Virus record (IMG/VR): IMGVR_UViG_3300046810_000256
Span: 1-64,000 of that record
Origin: a virus
Reading direction: 5' to 3' (one strand)
DNA: 64,000 nt
Part shown: positions 10,813 to 48,959 of the stretch, one piece after another
Layout of the letters: each line of letters begins with the position of its first letter
Position numbering within the stretch: the stretch's first letter is position 1
Position numbers and translations under genes: made by a program
Notes under the pieces: generated by a model
Database searches by the model: none
Seen by the model: the letters and a program-made list of their open reading frames with translations, nothing else
Told to the model about the DNA's origin: nothing

Positions 10813-10853
10813 ACGATACCCCGGCATAAAACGACGGCTCGGCGCTGGTTTTC
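10813..10853 (-). promoter_or_regulatory. Late promoter motif (GAAAACC-N28-TATCGT)
   Basis: Conserved 28-nt spacing upstream of darA. Confidence 0.6.
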
Positions 10854-26962: not shown

Positions 26963-27003
26963 AGCGTAAGGCCGAAAAACGGCCCTACTTGGTGAAGGTT
27001 TGC
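26963..27003 (-). promoter_or_regulatory. Late promoter motif (GCAAACC-N28-TACGCT)
   Basis: Conserved spacing; upstream of the tail fibre. Confidence 0.7.
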
Positions 27004-34634: not shown

Positions 34635-34675
34635 AGCGTACAGGCGCAAAAACGCCTTCCCCGGCGCCGGTTTGC
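34635..34675 (-). promoter_or_regulatory. Late promoter motif (GCAAACC-N28-TACGCT)
   Basis: Conserved spacing upstream of the portal. Confidence 0.7.
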
Positions 34676-36836: not shown

Positions 36837-37132
36837 CAGCGCACCGACCTTGTAGCGGTAACGATGCCGCATTTCTGCTTGAGGTAGGCCAAGTGCTCTC
36901 TGGTAGGCAGCACCACGTCTTTTTCGATCAGCTCAGAGTCAACCGTCGACAGCCCGGCTGCCGCCATGATCGCCAGCGTCTCAGTGGCGTCACCGTACAC
37001 GCGCAGCGCCATCATGGGCAGGTGATAGCGCTCGCTCGGGAAACTGCGCACCACTTGGCGACGGGATGAATACGACGGCTCAGTCAGTGCGAACTTGCGC
37101 ACCTCCAGATAAAACCGGGCTTCGGGGATCAT
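36836..37132 (-). CDS. Baseplate LysM-like protein (PmgA/T4 gp53-like)
   Basis: PSERYHLPMMALRVYG...AAAGL...LPT pattern. Confidence 0.65.
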   Translation of the reverse strand: MIPEARFYLEVRKFALTEPSYSSRRQVVRSFPSERYHLPMMALRVYGDATETLAIMAAAGLSTVDSELIEKDVVLPTREHLAYLKQKCGIVTATRSVR

Positions 37133-37569
37133 GGGATTTCAACTGCCTGTGATGCTAACGCTTTGGTTCGATCCTTAGCGCCCACCGCGACCTCAACCCG
37201 CTCAGCGCTATCCCAGCGCAACCGCGCCGTCACAGTCATCAATGCCGAAGTGTCCCCCCAGTCATAGAACGCGCCAGGCTCACTAATAACAACCCCGCTG
37301 AGCGTGTACAAGACAATGCCTTTTGCGCCCGAAACGATCTTCGCCGTGAGCTTCTTCCCGTGGACGGCCTCAAGGAATTTCCACGCGTGCCCGGCTTCCG
37401 TTTCATACATGGCGAACGGCCCGCTATTGCTACCCGGCATCGGAATAGGCGCCTTGAAGCAAAGCAAGCCGATATCTTCGAAGCCATCAATAACAATCAT
37501 CATGTCCACCGCTACATGCCGAGGCCTGCAATTGCATTTCAATCCAGTCATTACACGGGGCTCCATCAA
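37129..37569 (-). CDS. Tail-tube-like/BplB-like protein
   Basis: KAPIP...MYETEAGHA motif; first gene behind a late promoter. Confidence 0.45.
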   Translation of the reverse strand: MMEPRVMTGLKCNCRPRHVAVDMMIVIDGFEDIGLLCFKAPIPMPGSNSGPFAMYETEAGHAWKFLEAVHGKKLTAKIVSGAKGIVLYTLSGVVISEPGAFYDWGDTSALMTVTARLRWDSAERVEVAVGAKDRTKALASQAVEIP

Positions 37570-39011: not shown

Positions 39012-40562
39012 TTAAGCGACGTCGGCGAGAAGGTCAGCTGCTTTGCTTAGAGTCGCCTGGGCCCGCGAAGACTGAGCCGCCTCGGTTTCTTCACTGCACG
39101 CGATGTAGTTGACGTCCTCAAGGAAGACCATGCAGATGGTGTCAAACAAGTCCGGGGATGACAGGCCATCGGCGGCCATGCTCTCTTTGCTGGCGATCTT
39201 GTAGCGCCCCAGCTCATCGAACGAATACGGCAGTCGTGAGCCTTGGTCGATCAGGTCGCGCTTGTGCTTCTTGCCCAGCTTGACCACGCCGTCTTTGATT
39301 GCCTCGGTGGCATGCACGGTGCATTGCGCGCGCTGGTTGATGAATCGCTTGCGGTTCTCGTTGGAATGCGGCTTGGCGCCCCACAGAACGCCCTGAATGA
39401 TCATGCTGCCCTCTTGCAGCTCTTCCAGTCGGCGCTGGAACTGCTTACCCATGGCCGAGACGTCGATAACGATGGTGACGTTTGGCAGGCGCATGGCGTA
39501 ATCGCGCAGCTTGACCGCCAGCGGCGTCCAGTCCTCAGTTGCGCTGTAGATCGGCACGTCGACCACCTCCACCCGGCGGCGGCGCTCGTTCGCCATCCGG
39601 TCGCCCTTGCCGGTGACGCGGAAGTGGGTGGCCACGGTCTTGTCTCGCCCAACGCCAGCCGCGACGTCGACAACGATAATGTGGCCCCACTCTTCGCCTG
39701 GCAGGATCGGGCTCGCCTGCTCTATCGCCCGTTCGATCAGCACCGAACTCAGCAGGTATTTGCTGAGGTTGGTCGGGAACATGCCCCGCACCTTGATCTG
39801 ATATTCCGGCTCCATCGTGCCGCCGTACTGGAGCCGCTTTTCCTTGATGAACTTGAGGCTGACAATCGGGCTTTCTTCGGAGTTGAATACCAGCGGTACC
39901 CAGCCACCGCCGCGGTAGATGGACTGGCCGTGGTGCGTCTCCCAAAAGAAACCGGTAGAGCGCGTCGGCTGGCTGGCCATGATGAAGCGGTTGCGCTCGT
40001 CGGTCAGTGCGCCACCGATTACGCCAAAGTTCTCGTCTGGAATGCCGGACGCTTCGTCCGCCAGCCATAGCAGGTACTCGCCGTGGGTACCGGCCAAGTT
40101 CTCAGGCGAGCCGCGTGGAGCGGTACGGGTGGTGACGTACCATGTGGCGCTGTTACCGACCACATAGACTTTCTCAGCTTGGATAACCACGTAGTCAGCG
40201 ATCCACGCATGCGGCCCTTTGCGGATCTCCGCCAGCATGGTGGTGATTTCCTTCCACACACCCTCTCGCACCGTCTTGAGCTTCGGCGCGGTTACATAGG
40301 TGTTGGAATTGAGATAGCACAGCAGGTGCCAGAGGCAGATGACCCCGAAGCTGCGGGTTTTACCAGTACCGTGGCCAGACGATACCGACACCCGACAGCC
40401 GTAGACTGAGGATTCATCAAAGAGCTCTTGTTGTTGCGGTGTGACATCCATCAAACACGCTTCAACCGCAAAGGCGTACAGGTTGAAGGCGTAGCGTTCG
40501 ATGAAAGCGGGCCACCTCGGGTCTGTTTCTAAGCGCAGACGCTGGGCTTTCGGCTTGGCCAT
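39012..40562 (-). CDS. pacB: Terminase large subunit
   Basis: Walker A SGHGTGKT, Walker B WLADEASG, SQPTR motif III, RNase H domain IVVDVAAG...SPDLFD. Confidence 0.92.
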   Translation of the reverse strand: MAKPKAQRLRLETDPRWPAFIERYAFNLYAFAVEACLMDVTPQQQELFDESSVYGCRVSVSSGHGTGKTRSFGVICLWHLLCYLNSNTYVTAPKLKTVREGVWKEITTMLAEIRKGPHAWIADYVVIQAEKVYVVGNSATWYVTTRTAPRGSPENLAGTHGEYLLWLADEASGIPDENFGVIGGALTDERNRFIMASQPTRSTGFFWETHHGQSIYRGGGWVPLVFNSEESPIVSLKFIKEKRLQYGGTMEPEYQIKVRGMFPTNLSKYLLSSVLIERAIEQASPILPGEEWGHIIVVDVAAGVGRDKTVATHFRVTGKGDRMANERRRRVEVVDVPIYSATEDWTPLAVKLRDYAMRLPNVTIVIDVSAMGKQFQRRLEELQEGSMIIQGVLWGAKPHSNENRKRFINQRAQCTVHATEAIKDGVVKLGKKHKRDLIDQGSRLPYSFDELGRYKIASKESMAADGLSSPDLFDTICMVFLEDVNYIACSEETEAAQSSRAQATLSKAADLLADVA

Positions 40563-40604
40563 ATGATCCTTAAACACAAAGGGGCCAGTTCCCCGGCCCC
40601 TGTC

Positions 40605-40645
40605 ACTCTACGTCTACGCCGTTCGCACTTTCAGAGACGGTTTGC
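40605..40645 (-). promoter_or_regulatory. Late promoter motif dedicated to pacB (GCAAACC-N28-TAGAGT)
   Basis: Conserved spacing; overlaps the 3' end of the upstream gene. Confidence 0.65.
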
Positions 40646-41333
40646 GGTCTTGCGTGGCGTTCAGAACGAACGCTTTCCAGCTGCTGCCAGACGCCCAGCA
40701 GCTCAACGTGGTTTGTGTCGCCCGGAAAAATCCTTTGCGTCGACCTTGGCCAGAGTGCAACACCATGCCGCCACCGCTGCGGGCAAGCCCTTCACGCGCC
40801 ACCTGAAAGCTCACCTCCGGCATGGTGCTGGCGTCCTCCATCAACCACATGGGATCGCGCCCACCGAAACCGGCCATGTGTTCCGGGGAATGCGCGCTGG
40901 CGGCCAGAAAGAGCACGCCACAGCCTGAATACTCTGCCTGCTGGCGAAGTCTGATGCTTCTGATGGTGATTCGCAGGTAACCGACCAACCATGCGTGCTC
41001 GCCCTCAATACGCTTGACCAACTTGCTGTATTGCTCACAGCAGCGAAGCATGTCGCCGAAGGGCACGGCCACCATAGTCATCGACTCGGGGCGGCACAGC
41101 AGGCGCCAGAACGCGATAGGCGCCAGCGGGCTGATCATTCCCCGCTCCATCGGATTCATGTCTGACGCCATCGACACCTGGCAGTCAGGCAGCTGCACAC
41201 TTTCGAAGGCTCGCGCCAGTTGATCGTCCACTACCATCCCGCACACCTCACGCGCGAACGCGGCCAGGTCGTTGGCGTAGCGCCGGACGAAAGCGGGCCA
41301 GCGCTCGTCATCTTGAATCAGGCTCGTGCTCAT
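40614..41333 (-). CDS. Inactive paralogue of the PacB ATPase domain
   Basis: Colinear similarity to about PacB residues 10-240; Walker A lost, Walker B altered; ATGA-coupled start at 41333. Confidence 0.8.
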   Translation of the reverse strand: MSTSLIQDDERWPAFVRRYANDLAAFAREVCGMVVDDQLARAFESVQLPDCQVSMASDMNPMERGMISPLAPIAFWRLLCRPESMTMVAVPFGDMLRCCEQYSKLVKRIEGEHAWLVGYLRITIRSIRLRQQAEYSGCGVLFLAASAHSPEHMAGFGGRDPMWLMEDASTMPEVSFQVAREGLARSGGGMVLHSGQGRRKGFFRATQTTLSCWASGSSWKAFVLNATQDRKPSLKVRTA

Positions 41334-41929
41334 GCTGCGGCCTCGCTGGCCAGCTGCGCCAACTCGCGCTCGTGTTCGGCGATCAGCAGCGCGCCAGCCT
41401 TCTCGATGGCGCGAAGTCGTGACTCTTGTTTCATGGGGGCGTGAGGCCATGGCCAGACGGTTGGCGCGAAGTCCGGCACCAGCAGCTGAAGCAAGTAACC
41501 CGCCGCCGCGCGCAGCAGCTCGTCATCGCGATAGCGCAGGTCGCGTTCCGGGTGATACCCCTTCACCAGCAGCTGGCGCTGGCGCTCGCTCAGAATGGCG
41601 TTCTCGCTCGGGCCGGTGATTGGCATGGATGACCACAGCGCCAGCGGCTGCTCCCATCCATTGGCGGCCTTCTGCGCCCATTCAGTTGTGGTCATGCGCG
41701 CATATGGCCGCGTCACGGAAATACCCTGATCACGCCCACGGCGCACCAGAAGCCACGCTTTTGGCTGCTGAGTGGCGTGGCGAGACTGCGCCAGCGATTC
41801 CCACACCAGAAACGTCTTCTGTGTGTGGGCGTTCACGTACTCGCCCGTCTCGGTGTTGAATGCCAGGTCACTGATACCCGCATGCCGACACGAGCGCTCA
41901 AAATGTTCGCGACTGAAAAAGAGGGTCAT
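41330..41929 (-). CDS. Conserved phage hypothetical protein
   Basis: ERQRQ...GY...D...EL.RAAAGY...WPW...KAGALLIAE motif common in phage early genes; likely start ATG 41929. Confidence 0.6.
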   Translation of the reverse strand: MTLFFSREHFERSCRHAGISDLAFNTETGEYVNAHTQKTFLVWESLAQSRHATQQPKAWLLVRRGRDQGISVTRPYARMTTTEWAQKAANGWEQPLALWSSMPITGPSENAILSERQRQLLVKGYHPERDLRYRDDELLRAAAGYLLQLLVPDFAPTVWPWPHAPMKQESRLRAIEKAGALLIAEHERELAQLASEAAA

Positions 41930-42677: not shown

Positions 42678-42848
42678 CTAAATCTTGAGCCGCATCTGTG
42701 CGCGGTCACATTCGTTTTCACCGTGCGGGAGCTTGTGGGCCAAGGCTTCACAGTTCCTGCGCCCACAATCACGGCAGTAGGTGTAGGCGGGGGCGCTTCG
42801 TGGCCTCCGCCAGATGACGCGATTGCTTTCGCAAAAACGGCAGTTCAT
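42678..42848 (-). CDS. 56-aa zinc-ribbon protein (below the ORF-track cutoff)
   Basis: MNCRFCESNRVIW...YCRDCGRRNC; AGGA RBS. Confidence 0.5.
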   Translation of the reverse strand: MNCRFCESNRVIWRRPRSAPAYTYCRDCGRRNCEALAHKLPHGENECDRAQMRLKI

Positions 42849-42874: not shown

Positions 42875-44161
42875 CTAGGCGGGACGCGCTTCGATCATCG
42901 CCTGCGCGTACACCCATCGGCGATTAGCAAAGGCGGCCATGCTTTCGTCTGATTTTTGCTTCAGCGGGCAGTTGATGGCGAAGTCATCGCGCAGCTCTGT
43001 CAGGTACAGACCCAGCTTCTTCTCTGGCGCTTTCGGCGCGGTGGCCGGGTCGGCGTAGGCTGGCACGGGTTTTTCGACCGCCAGCGGCAGTTCAACGCTG
43101 TGATACGCCATGCAGAAGGCATCAAACAGGTCGGCGGCTGGGAGTTGGGCGGCTGCGATGTGCGAAGGCTTGGCCACGAGATAGCGATTCTCGGCGCTCA
43201 ACTCATAAGGGATCTTTGAGCCCAACAGCACCAGCGGATCACTCAAGCCGCAATCGGATGGCAGCAGCAGCTTCAGGTTTTTATTCCGAATCGCCTCGGC
43301 AGTCAGAACACTGCATTCAGTGCGGCGGTTCACGAAACGCTTGCCGTTGCCACCTTTTGGCAGCGCTTGACCCATCGTCATTCCGTAACACCTGACATGG
43401 GGACTCACAACGTCTTGAAGGTACTTGAGCAACTGCACGCCATCGCCGAAGGCATCCACGAGAATCGTCGTAGGGGCTGATAGCGCATTGACGTGCCGCA
43501 GCAACGCATCGCCGTAGGACTTCAGATCACCGCCGTCTGTGAGGATTGGATAGCTGGCCACCTCGACCAGTCGGCGGGCGTCAGGGCTGTCATACACGCG
43601 CATGTGGGCGGCAACAGTCATTCCTCCACGACCAGCACCGCCGAGACGGACACCGATTACATGCTTCGCCTCGACACCCTCGGGAATCGGGCTTTCGATG
43701 GTCAGCGCCAGGGCGATATCGGCGTCACTGAGCAGGTAGCCGCGACGATCCTGATTCTGCGCCCGAAGAATCGCGGGGACTTCGTTGTTCGAAGCCATCA
43801 ATGCAGGCTGTACCTTGCCTTTGACCACCACTTGCAGCTGGCCAGATGAATTAGGACGAACGATGTCTTTGATGGCCGTCGCCACCGGGGAGGCCAGGTA
43901 ACTGGTCAGCAGCGGGCGCAGGCGGTAGTGGGTTTGTGCGAATCGCTGTTTACGGCCAAAGCCTTCCTGAACCGACACGGGCTTACAGTTCGGAACATCT
44001 ACCCAGTAATGCACACCACGGGCGGCATTAGCGCGATCCGGCGCCGATACCTTGTAACCTTGGGTGATGAGCCATTGCTTGAAGGACGTCACGTTGCACG
44101 CCAACAGCAGATCGGTGTCGTGCGATTGTCCTTTCGGTTTTACTGCGGGGTTCGACATCAT
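42875..44161 (-). CDS. Protein containing a degenerate paralogue of the PacB nuclease (RNase H) domain
   Basis: About 43103-43739 aligns with the PacB C-terminal half (YLLS...KRFVNRR...ADLFDAFCM); first catalytic Asp replaced by Arg. Confidence 0.8.
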   Translation of the reverse strand: MMSNPAVKPKGQSHDTDLLLACNVTSFKQWLITQGYKVSAPDRANAARGVHYWVDVPNCKPVSVQEGFGRKQRFAQTHYRLRPLLTSYLASPVATAIKDIVRPNSSGQLQVVVKGKVQPALMASNNEVPAILRAQNQDRRGYLLSDADIALALTIESPIPEGVEAKHVIGVRLGGAGRGGMTVAAHMRVYDSPDARRLVEVASYPILTDGGDLKSYGDALLRHVNALSAPTTILVDAFGDGVQLLKYLQDVVSPHVRCYGMTMGQALPKGGNGKRFVNRRTECSVLTAEAIRNKNLKLLLPSDCGLSDPLVLLGSKIPYELSAENRYLVAKPSHIAAAQLPAADLFDAFCMAYHSVELPLAVEKPVPAYADPATAPKAPEKKLGLYLTELRDDFAINCPLKQKSDESMAAFANRRWVYAQAMIEARPA

Positions 44162-44448
44162 TCAGCTCCTAGCGGGTTGGCCGTGAACGGCCTCAGATTT
44201 TTTGTGTTCCCGCGGCGGATGGCCGAGGGACGTTTTTCAACAACAGGCTTGATCCACAGCTGCCCTGTTTTGAACAGGAACAGCTCCCACAGCCCAAGCT
44301 TGATTTTGGTGTCACCCTTCTCGTACAGACGCCACGATTCGCGGCTCACGTAGATCAGCTCCCCCGCAGCGGTTTCGCTCAGGCTCGCGTTCTTGCGGGC
44401 TTGCCGGATGTTTTTTGGGGTCGGTTCGCGGTCGGCGGGGAGCGTCAT
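44158..44448 (-). CDS. XRE-type HTH protein
   Basis: IRQARKNASLSETAAGELIYVSRESWRLYEKG. Confidence 0.75.
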   Translation of the reverse strand: MTLPADREPTPKNIRQARKNASLSETAAGELIYVSRESWRLYEKGDTKIKLGLWELFLFKTGQLWIKPVVEKRPSAIRRGNTKNLRPFTANPLGAE

Positions 44449-45572
44449 GCGTCACCGCCGTTATCATCCAGCCCGGCGATATCGGCCATACGCTGGGCCA
44501 TCGCGTCTCTCTGCGCTTGTGTGGCCTGCATGCCTTTCGCGTAGGCGTCATTCAGCGCAACCGTATCTACAACGGCCACAGGCGCCTGCGCCGGTTCGAT
44601 ATTCATGTTGAAGATGCGGCCCAGCATTTCGAGGTAAGGGCGGGCGTCGTGGATCTTCATTTCCAGCCCATCTTTGGTTTCCTTCACGCCGCCGTACAGA
44701 GCCAGCGCGCCAGGCGAAAGGTGCCGGGTGTCTTTGAGCACGAGCTGGCCAATGCCATTGCCATTGCACTCAGGGCATTCCGGGTTAGGGTCGAGGTTGG
44801 CGTCGAAGCCCAGGCCGCCCAGCTCGTCGAGCACCGGTAACGGCTTGCGCTTCGCGGCCTTGGCTTCGGCCAGCGCCTCAGCATGGCGCGCCTTGCGCTC
44901 TTCCAGCTGACGCGGGGTCATCTGGTACCGGAAATCTTTGCCGTGGCAGCACCGGCAGCAGCGGTAAACGTATTCGACCAACTCCCGAGGGTCTGCCATC
45001 GCCGCGCCGTAGATGCGCTGAATGACTCGCCCGGTGATTTCCTCAGTCTTGGCAAACAGCTCCGCACGCTTGGCCAGCGTGTATGGGTGTTCCTTAACCT
45101 TCTTTAACAGGCGACTGGCTGCTGCTGCCGCCACTGCATCGGATTTGCACTCGTAGCCTGCATCGAGATAGGACTGAGTGCCGTTTTGTGTGACCAGCCA
45201 AAGGTCGACAAACTTCGCCTGACGGGCGTCGAGATCGTGCAGACTCCCGGCCTGCAAGGCTTCCAGCTCTTTCGGTTTCAGCTTGACCGCTTTCTTCACT
45301 CGGGTGCTGCCGCCTGTTCCGCGAGGCGTTTTTGCTTGCGCCGGAGCACCCGGTACCGCCGCAGCAGGTTTTGCAGCACGGGGCTTTCGGGCTAAAGTAG
45401 CAGGCTTTTTAGGTGTCTTTGGAGAGGTGGCTTTTTGAACGCGGCCAGCACTCACCTTAACTTCTGGCTTTTTAGGGGGTGCAAACACAGGTTTGCCAGC
45501 CTTGTCCGGGGATTGATTATCCTCGGCTGGCTTAGCGCGCTCTTCGATACCCTCGATCTTTTTCCGTGCCAC
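44445..45572 (-). CDS. pacA: Terminase small subunit
   Basis: RQAKFVDLW...NGTQSYLDAGY...AASRLL; CRCCHG...PNPECPECNG insert; GVKETKDGLEMK. Confidence 0.85.
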   Translation of the reverse strand: MARKKIEGIEERAKPAEDNQSPDKAGKPVFAPPKKPEVKVSAGRVQKATSPKTPKKPATLARKPRAAKPAAAVPGAPAQAKTPRGTGGSTRVKKAVKLKPKELEALQAGSLHDLDARQAKFVDLWLVTQNGTQSYLDAGYECKSDAVAAAAASRLLKKVKEHPYTLAKRAELFAKTEEITGRVIQRIYGAAMADPRELVEYVYRCCRCCHGKDFRYQMTPRQLEERKARHAEALAEAKAAKRKPLPVLDELGGLGFDANLDPNPECPECNGNGIGQLVLKDTRHLSPGALALYGGVKETKDGLEMKIHDARPYLEMLGRIFNMNIEPAQAPVAVVDTVALNDAYAKGMQATQAQRDAMAQRMADIAGLDDNGGDA

Positions 45573-47971: not shown

Positions 47972-48012
47972 AATGTAATGGCGCGCACGGCGGCGCCACC
48001 CGCAGGGTTTGC
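47972..48012 (-). promoter_or_regulatory. Late promoter motif (GCAAACC-N28-TACATT)
   Basis: Conserved spacing. Confidence 0.65.
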
Positions 48013-48876: not shown

Positions 48877-48923
48877 CGACATAATGACATAAAGGCACTG
48901 TATCACAATAGCGTTTCTGTGTT
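48877..48923 (-). promoter_or_regulatory. Repeated early promoter/operator copy 1
   Basis: cgacataatgaca-N16-caatagcg, also at 52984 and 62306. Confidence 0.7.
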
Positions 48924-48959
48924 TTTGTGCTGTTTGCGCTCTCCCGGTAGCCAGACACG

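Follow-up and report, generated by a model that had tools for sequence, protein, structure and literature searches.

A putative pseudoenzyme derived from the terminase motor domain is encoded beside the PacB-type large terminase of a P1-like Pseudomonas phage

A gene located next to the large terminase gene of a P1-like Pseudomonas phage was identified as a catalytically dead paralogue of the terminase ATPase domain, as judged from its sequence. The gene, here called ATPp, encodes 239 aa and was found on the minus strand at 40614..41333 of the window, which is the whole stretch of 64 kb that was analysed from an 83,006-bp IMG/VR record with direct terminal repeats. ATPp is best regarded as a pseudoenzyme that is maintained by selection and probably originated from an old duplicate of the ATPase domain of a PacB-type large terminase (TerL). 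The duplicate would have kept its fold and its N-terminal helical arm and lost every nucleotide-binding and catalytic motif.

The packaging genes were arranged on the minus strand in the order TerS, a small HTH gene, a 428-aa gene, several small ORFs, a 199-aa gene, ATPp and TerL. The head of the row, in the PacA position, was occupied by the small terminase subunit TerS (44445..45572, minus strand), which matched PF03592 Terminase_2 (1.1e-13) and phrog_51 (2.7e-18). TerL, the PacB-type large terminase, was listed as an ORF of 521 aa at 39012..40577 on the minus strand and matched phrog_2 (3.4e-32). Its Walker A, Walker B and nuclease Asp residues were intact, and it showed 35% identity to P1 PacB over 92% of the length. 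The start of TerL is probably ATG 40562 (MAKPK..., 516 aa, AAGGA upstream) and not the listed GTG 40577; in CP048608, the annotated TerL orthologue begins at the codon that corresponds to ATG 40562. The packaging row also contained an ORF of 56 aa (42678-42848, minus strand) with two CxxC pairs resembling a zinc ribbon, for which only sub-threshold Pfam hints were obtained (Lar restriction alleviation, E 0.027). Another ORF of 146 aa (37129-37569, minus strand) showed a weak match to a tail-tube family (phrog_1120, 2.4e-5).

ATPp adjoined the TerL gene on its upstream side and on the same strand. It starts with ATG 41333 and ends with the stop codon at 40616-40614. The start codon overlapped the stop of the upstream 199-aa gene (41330..41929, minus strand) as ATGA, and GAGG was present 8 nt upstream. 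The close homologues of ATPp were 236-240 aa in length, which supports the 239-aa form as the likely gene, not the 278-aa frame. The stop codon was situated at the boundary between the ATPase and nuclease domains, corresponding to about TerL residue 242, and the nuclease domain was absent; the claim in the initial annotation that the protein ends about where the ATPase domain ends was therefore correct. ATPp is a separate gene for the ATPase-like domain only, with its own start and stop. Read-through of the ATPp stop into TerL was considered, as ATPp is in frame with GTG 40577, but was rejected because two in-frame TAG codons lie between them.

The neighbouring 199-aa gene was conserved, with 23 homologues at 47-92% identity, and always immediately preceded ATPp, or TerL in elements without ATPp. 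The last ~80 residues of its product matched the ends of several PHROG families (phrog_9763, 6628, 11504 and others), and a protein atlas search with the 199-aa protein gave no lead. The overlap between the 199-aa gene and ATPp was also present in related elements, as 4 bp between annotated genes in L006 and L007 and as overlapping frames in L014. The order TerS, HTH gene, 428-aa-gene position, 199-aa gene, ATPp and TerL was kept where TerL was only 66-67% identical; L007 and L014 were at this distance and retained the 199-aa gene, ATPp and TerL in this order.

Using BLASTP, ATPp showed 71 identities in 233 positions (30%, E 3e-28) to the adjacent TerL and was colinear with TerL residues 16-242. 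A search of the window's own genome with ATPp returned the same TerL match. Comparison of the ATPp family profile with the PacB-type TerL profile by hhalign gave a probability of 100% and an E value of 3.2e-44 over 232 columns, and we regard this profile-profile comparison as decisive for the predicted kinship of ATPp to PacB-type TerLs. The profile similarity to PacB on which the initial annotation had staked its reading was thus present. The name PacB held for the window's own PacB-family TerL, but P1 PacB itself showed no significant pairwise similarity to ATPp (E 0.39). No family was found for ATPp, TerL or NucP (the 428-aa protein described below) in Pfam and NCBIfam, and the PDB sequence searches found nothing.

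The AlphaFold2 model of ATPp, built from 15 sequences, had a pLDDT of 81 and a pTM of 0.84 and displayed a core of alternating strands and helices. All 13 PDB matches of the model at E <= 0.001 in Foldseek were large-terminase ATPase domains, including those of P74-26, Sf6, T4 gp17 and HK97, and T4 gp17 gave a TM score of 0.66. Structure prediction, which had been proposed as a check, therefore placed the TerL ATPase domains first. The initial annotation had described ATPp as a Walker-less paralogue of the PacB-type ATPase domain, and the homology, the fold, the extent and the loss of both Walker motifs were all borne out. Every colinear motif pair that it quoted was present in the BLASTP alignment of ATPp with TerL. 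In the same alignment, Walker A was changed from SGHGTGKT to ASDMNPMERG and Walker B from LADEAS to LMEDAS.

To compare the whole family, 17 columns conserved in at least 85% of 66 PacB-type TerL N-domains were used as reference for the 30-member ATPp clade. Only two of these 17 near-invariant columns were retained, namely the Gly of 'LAG' (kept in 90% of the clade) and the Ala after Walker B (83%). The Walker A Lys was present in 100% of the 66 TerLs and in 3% of the 30 clade members, and the Ser/Gly/Gly/Gly of Walker A were kept in 3-27%. The Gln of the Q motif, which binds adenine and lies upstream of Walker A, was found in 98% of the TerLs and in 20% of the ATPp clade. The Walker B Asp was kept in 3% of the clade, with Glu in 25 of the 30 members, and the catalytic Glu was kept in 0%, being replaced by Asp, Gly, Ala or Asn. 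The His after 'LAG' was kept in 7%. The former P-loop varied in length and sequence between subclades, and the subclades displayed their own conserved motifs at this place, for example 'ISPLAPIALW'. Since the losses are common to the whole ATPp family, they are of long standing and fixed, not damage of recent date. Because the defining enzymatic features of TerL are missing, the ATPp family is predicted not to be a terminase.

The ATPp clade had conserved positions of its own in four places, which were the arm, the helix after the P-loop, Trp115, and 'PE.LAG' together with Trp163. The conserved arm residues were Asp9, Phe15, Arg18, Tyr19, Phe26, Ala27, Val30 and Gly32, and several arm positions were better conserved in ATPp than in TerLs. 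Across six elements, the ATPp arm (residues 6-34) showed 41-66% identity to any TerL arm, compared with 18-30% for residues 35-200. Similarity specific to the cognate TerL was not detected in this comparison, and gene conversion between ATPp and its cognate TerL was ruled out on this basis. The absence of cognate similarity fits an old duplication that would have proceeded without ongoing gene conversion.

A promoter-like element, GCAAACC-N28-TAGAGT, was located at 40605..40645 on the minus strand, inside the last ATPp codons and directly upstream of TerL. The pattern G[CA]AAA..-N28-TAnnnT occurred six times on the minus strand of the window and 0 times on the plus strand, compared with 0.44 expected from shuffles; the other minus-strand matches were at 10813-10853, 26963-27003, 34635-34675, 47972-48012 and 48897-48937. 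The exact spacing of the element before TerL was kept in six lineages, including L008, which is without ATPp. The C-terminal tail of ATPp, which is otherwise disordered, keeps 'RKPS' or 'QTP' because the promoter-like box is embedded there. A scan for terminator-like sequences identified a GC-rich hairpin with a 9-bp stem, followed by the T-rich TTTGTGTTT, at 40580..40601 on the minus strand. This hairpin, located past the TAGAGT hexamer and ahead of the TerL start, was conserved in L004, L005 and L009, and an analogous hairpin was found before TerL in L008 and L014. It could terminate transcription of the upstream row or form a stem-loop in the 5' leader of the TerL mRNA. TerL thus appears to have its own promoter-like element, and the upstream row appears to end with ATPp.

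Among 5.8 billion proteins searched, 13 homologues of ATPp were detected, 12 at 54-95% identity and one at 34%, none with a Pfam family. The homologues were intact, with lengths of 219-262 aa, and several of the 13 were located on Pseudomonas contigs of 80-82 kb. The relatives carrying ATPp were Pseudomonas phage-plasmids of about 80 kb. Related elements included plasmid CP048608 of P. fluorescens DR133 (80,993 bp), pKF715C of P. putida (94,696 bp) and a P. azerbaijanoccidentalis contig of 82.7 kb that was found by a scan of genome contigs; further ones were present among IMG/VR contigs. Elements with ATPp are rare, as a match was obtained in 2 of the 301 Pseudomonas species genomes searched. 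Scans of viral contigs with the queries P0026, P0082 and P0086 found no loci.

ATPp is optional, and some relatives were without a copy. In L008, the P. atacamensis SM1 plasmid NZ_CP070504, no ATPp was found upstream of TerL and the 199-aa homologue directly preceded TerL. The TerL of this plasmid (L008:2407-4683) was interrupted near residue 70, at the Walker A P-loop, by an intein that comprised a Hint domain and a homing endonuclease. Of 14 annotated genes around TerL in pPRS08-11306, none resembled ATPp, and a second match was located elsewhere in this record. The Burkholderia G4 and Ideonella plasmids gave a single match each, which is probably TerL.

When 1.84 billion cluster representatives were searched with a profile, 348 matches were obtained, about 44 of which were short (180-300 aa) and without Walker A; these ~44 short Walker-less relatives are clusters at 50% identity. 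The cluster members were found on contigs of 77-87 kb. Of the short proteins, 30-31 fell into one group of a maximum-likelihood tree, the group that contains ATPp (SH-aLRT 82), and an inner group of 26 had an SH-aLRT of 98. Two smaller Walker-less groups were placed among full-length TerLs in the same tree, and the tree of short Walker-less proteins requires at least three changes. However, a single clade for all Walker-less proteins was not rejected by the AU test (p 0.436). A repeated origin of dead ATPase copies is thus suggested by the tree.

One of the two smaller groups contained a second apparently dead copy of the TerL ATPase domain, a protein of 263 aa with degenerate Walker motifs encoded at L020:3998-4789 on NZ_CP114569, a P1-like plasmid of Citrobacter freundii. 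This gene overlapped the end of ref by 4 bp and was located upstream of the maturation-control gene, far from pacB. Its product keeps the linker 'GGRDS..YR' after the ATPase domain. Because the Citrobacter copy sits after ref and far from the pac genes, the linkage of dead ATPase copies to the packaging operon is not universal. Using tblastn with the Citrobacter copy as query, only PacB was found in P1, P7 and D6.

The 428-aa gene of the packaging row (42875..44161, minus strand), here called NucP, encoded a counterpart of the other TerL domain. Residues 142-353 of NucP were a paralogue of the TerL nuclease domain, with 34% identity to TerL 274-485 (BLASTP, E 2e-21). The first catalytic Asp was replaced by Arg (Arg172), which was invariant in 19 of 19 orthologues, and the later acidic residues remained. 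The nuclease-like insert was flanked by an N-terminal domain and a C-terminal 'LRDDFA...RRWxYA' motif. The shorter proteins of L007 and L008 contained both flanks without the insert, and the L014 counterpart of 290 aa matched the C-terminal motif only, the insert appearing to be absent. It follows that the dead domains of ATPp and NucP arose in separate events, ATPp being independent of the nuclease copy. The AlphaFold2 model of NucP was poor (pLDDT 51).

Selection was estimated by the Nei-Gojobori method using the window and two relatives. The dN/dS of ATPp was 0.18-0.26 at a dS of 0.59-0.71, while that of TerL was 0.08, that of TerS 0.15-0.17 and that of NucP 0.17-0.29. ATPp is under purifying selection that is two- to three-fold weaker than that on TerL, and this analysis shows ATPp to be a working gene. 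A pseudogene was rejected, as the frame was intact in all relatives examined and dN/dS was in the above range. ATPp diverged faster than the neighbouring 199-aa gene, with family identities of 22-95% and 47-92%, respectively. On one contig, the 199-aa gene was 69% identical to that of the window and its ATPp about 22-27%.

With regard to function, we tentatively favour ATPp as a binding-only terminase mimic or packaging accessory that modulates the assembly of the holoenzyme, and we consider this reading almost as likely to be right as wrong. ATPp is predicted to be unable to burn ATP, so we infer that it must act by binding. It would be made from the gene row running from TerS to ATPp. A dominant-negative effect of ATPp, for which the initial annotation proposed a test on burst size, would be one candidate explanation of several. 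The best-conserved surface of ATPp is the arm that it has in common with TerL, so its likeliest partners would be those of the TerL N-domain; this TerL-like surface, and especially the arm, may engage TerS or TerL itself. Such binding would tune the assembly of the terminase holoenzyme or the cleavage at pac, with TerL having in addition its own promoter-like element. In lambda, gpA contacts the small subunit through its N-terminal segment. By analogy, the arm of ATPp may be likened to this segment, which would support a role in packaging. A complex prediction with the 199-aa neighbour, TerL 1-250 and ATPp, run without controls, gave a score of 0.00, which carries no weight for or against binding.

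The main rival to the packaging modulator is a role in immunity, in which ATPp and NucP would be TerL-shaped proteins that interfere with sensors of TerL which the hosts may carry (Avs1-3, Upx). They might occupy a sensor without activating it or otherwise mask TerL. The ATPase domain of the terminase suffices to activate Avs2 and Upx (PMC13601566), and a protein of the same fold without the active site is a ligand that might bind without triggering. The dead nuclease-domain copy in the same operon points in the same direction. Conflict genes typically show a patchy presence and, as may be the case in P1-type elements, repeated origins; the fast divergence of ATPp fits them as well, although a single origin is not rejected by the AU test (p 0.44). 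Avs2 is also reported to read the ATP that the terminase has bound, and Avs3 to read both this ATP and residues of the active site (PMC13601566), so that a copy of the fold with no active site might evade or antagonise them. However, as recognition by these sensors depends on the active site and on ATP, a domain without Walker motifs may not be bound by them at all. Furthermore, ATPp is located inside the packaging gene row and not in an early or anti-defence region. Overall we consider a role of this kind unlikely, and the narrower proposal that ATPp and NucP are an immune-silent structural mimic of TerL antagonising host receptors for the TerL ATPase domain (Avs2, Upx) quite unlikely. If true, such a mimic would be the first case of an anti-defence protein that arose from the very viral protein being sensed.

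The remaining explanations are less likely than both the packaging modulator and the immune role. ATPp could be a weapon between elements, acting as a dominant-negative subunit that poisons the terminase of superinfecting PacA/PacB-type phages or satellites. Inactive subunits can poison ring ATPases such as the ASCE motors, satellites target packaging proteins, and the equal similarity of the ATPp arm to cognate and non-cognate TerL arms makes a cross-reaction conceivable. This very lack of discrimination between cognate and non-cognate arms means that the element's own TerL would be poisoned equally, and ATPp lies in a packaging row headed by TerS, so that we regard a weapon as improbable. 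A decaying, functionless duplicate of the 5' half of terL would agree with the loss of the catalytic motifs and with the relatives without ATPp, but it is already disfavoured and highly improbable given the intact frame in every relative examined at identities down to about 25-30%, the dN/dS of 0.18-0.26 at dS 0.6-0.7, the conserved start overlap and RBS, the family-specific motifs such as 'ISPLAPIALW' that replace the P-loop, and the confident AlphaFold2 model. Binding or hydrolysis of nucleotide by ATPp through non-canonical residues may be imagined from the acidic residue that persists in place of the Walker B Asp (a Glu in 25 of 30 members) and from the core beta-sheet preserved in the model, yet it is just as remote, as the former P-loop contains no conserved pattern of Lys, Ser or Thr and differs in length between subclades, and the Q motif, the catalytic Glu and the His after 'LAG' were all lost.

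Among known systems, the PacB-type TerLs, including P1 PacB, have the same N-terminal ATPase-domain fold and ancestry as ATPp, colinear over about 230 residues, with the arm, the core strands and the 'PE.LAG' motif in common, and ATPp is encoded beside the real enzyme. They differ in being about 516 aa in length, while ATPp has 239 aa and is without Walker A, the Walker B Asp-Glu, the Q motif and the nuclease domain. In phage P1, pacA abuts pacB with nothing between them, whereas the window contains ATPp upstream of TerL. Small non-enzymatic satellite proteins such as SaPI Ppi and PICI Rpp act on terminase subunits by binding; unlike ATPp, they are unrelated to TerL in sequence and fold, are encoded by satellites and target TerS. 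The clamp-loader delta-prime is an inactive paralogue within an ASCE/AAA+ assembly, which uses its ATPase fold for binding or architecture beside active paralogues. It is a parallel in the way of working only, as its family is unrelated to ATPp. T4 vs.8 is an independent protein with homology to the ATPase domain of the terminase (PMC13601566) and, by description, the nearest described counterpart of ATPp, as both are separate phage genes for a TerL-ATPase-like domain only. In contrast to ATPp, which has lost both motifs, vs.8 is reported to keep Walker A and Walker B and to activate EcAvs2 (PMC13601566). No description of Walker-less terminase-domain paralogues was found in the published literature.

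Few phage enzymes are as conserved or as well studied as the large terminases, which are now recognised as prime targets of the innate immune sensors of bacteria. A terminase-like match is not always a terminase, which is a warning for annotation, and one NucP orthologue already carries the label 'terminase protein' in a public record. ATPp is a natural probe, an ATPase fold without ATP, for the contacts of the TerL N-domain. A sizeable family of dead motor domains in the packaging operon of P1-like phage-plasmids would indicate that the control of packaging, or the conflict between phage and host, has a layer not described before.
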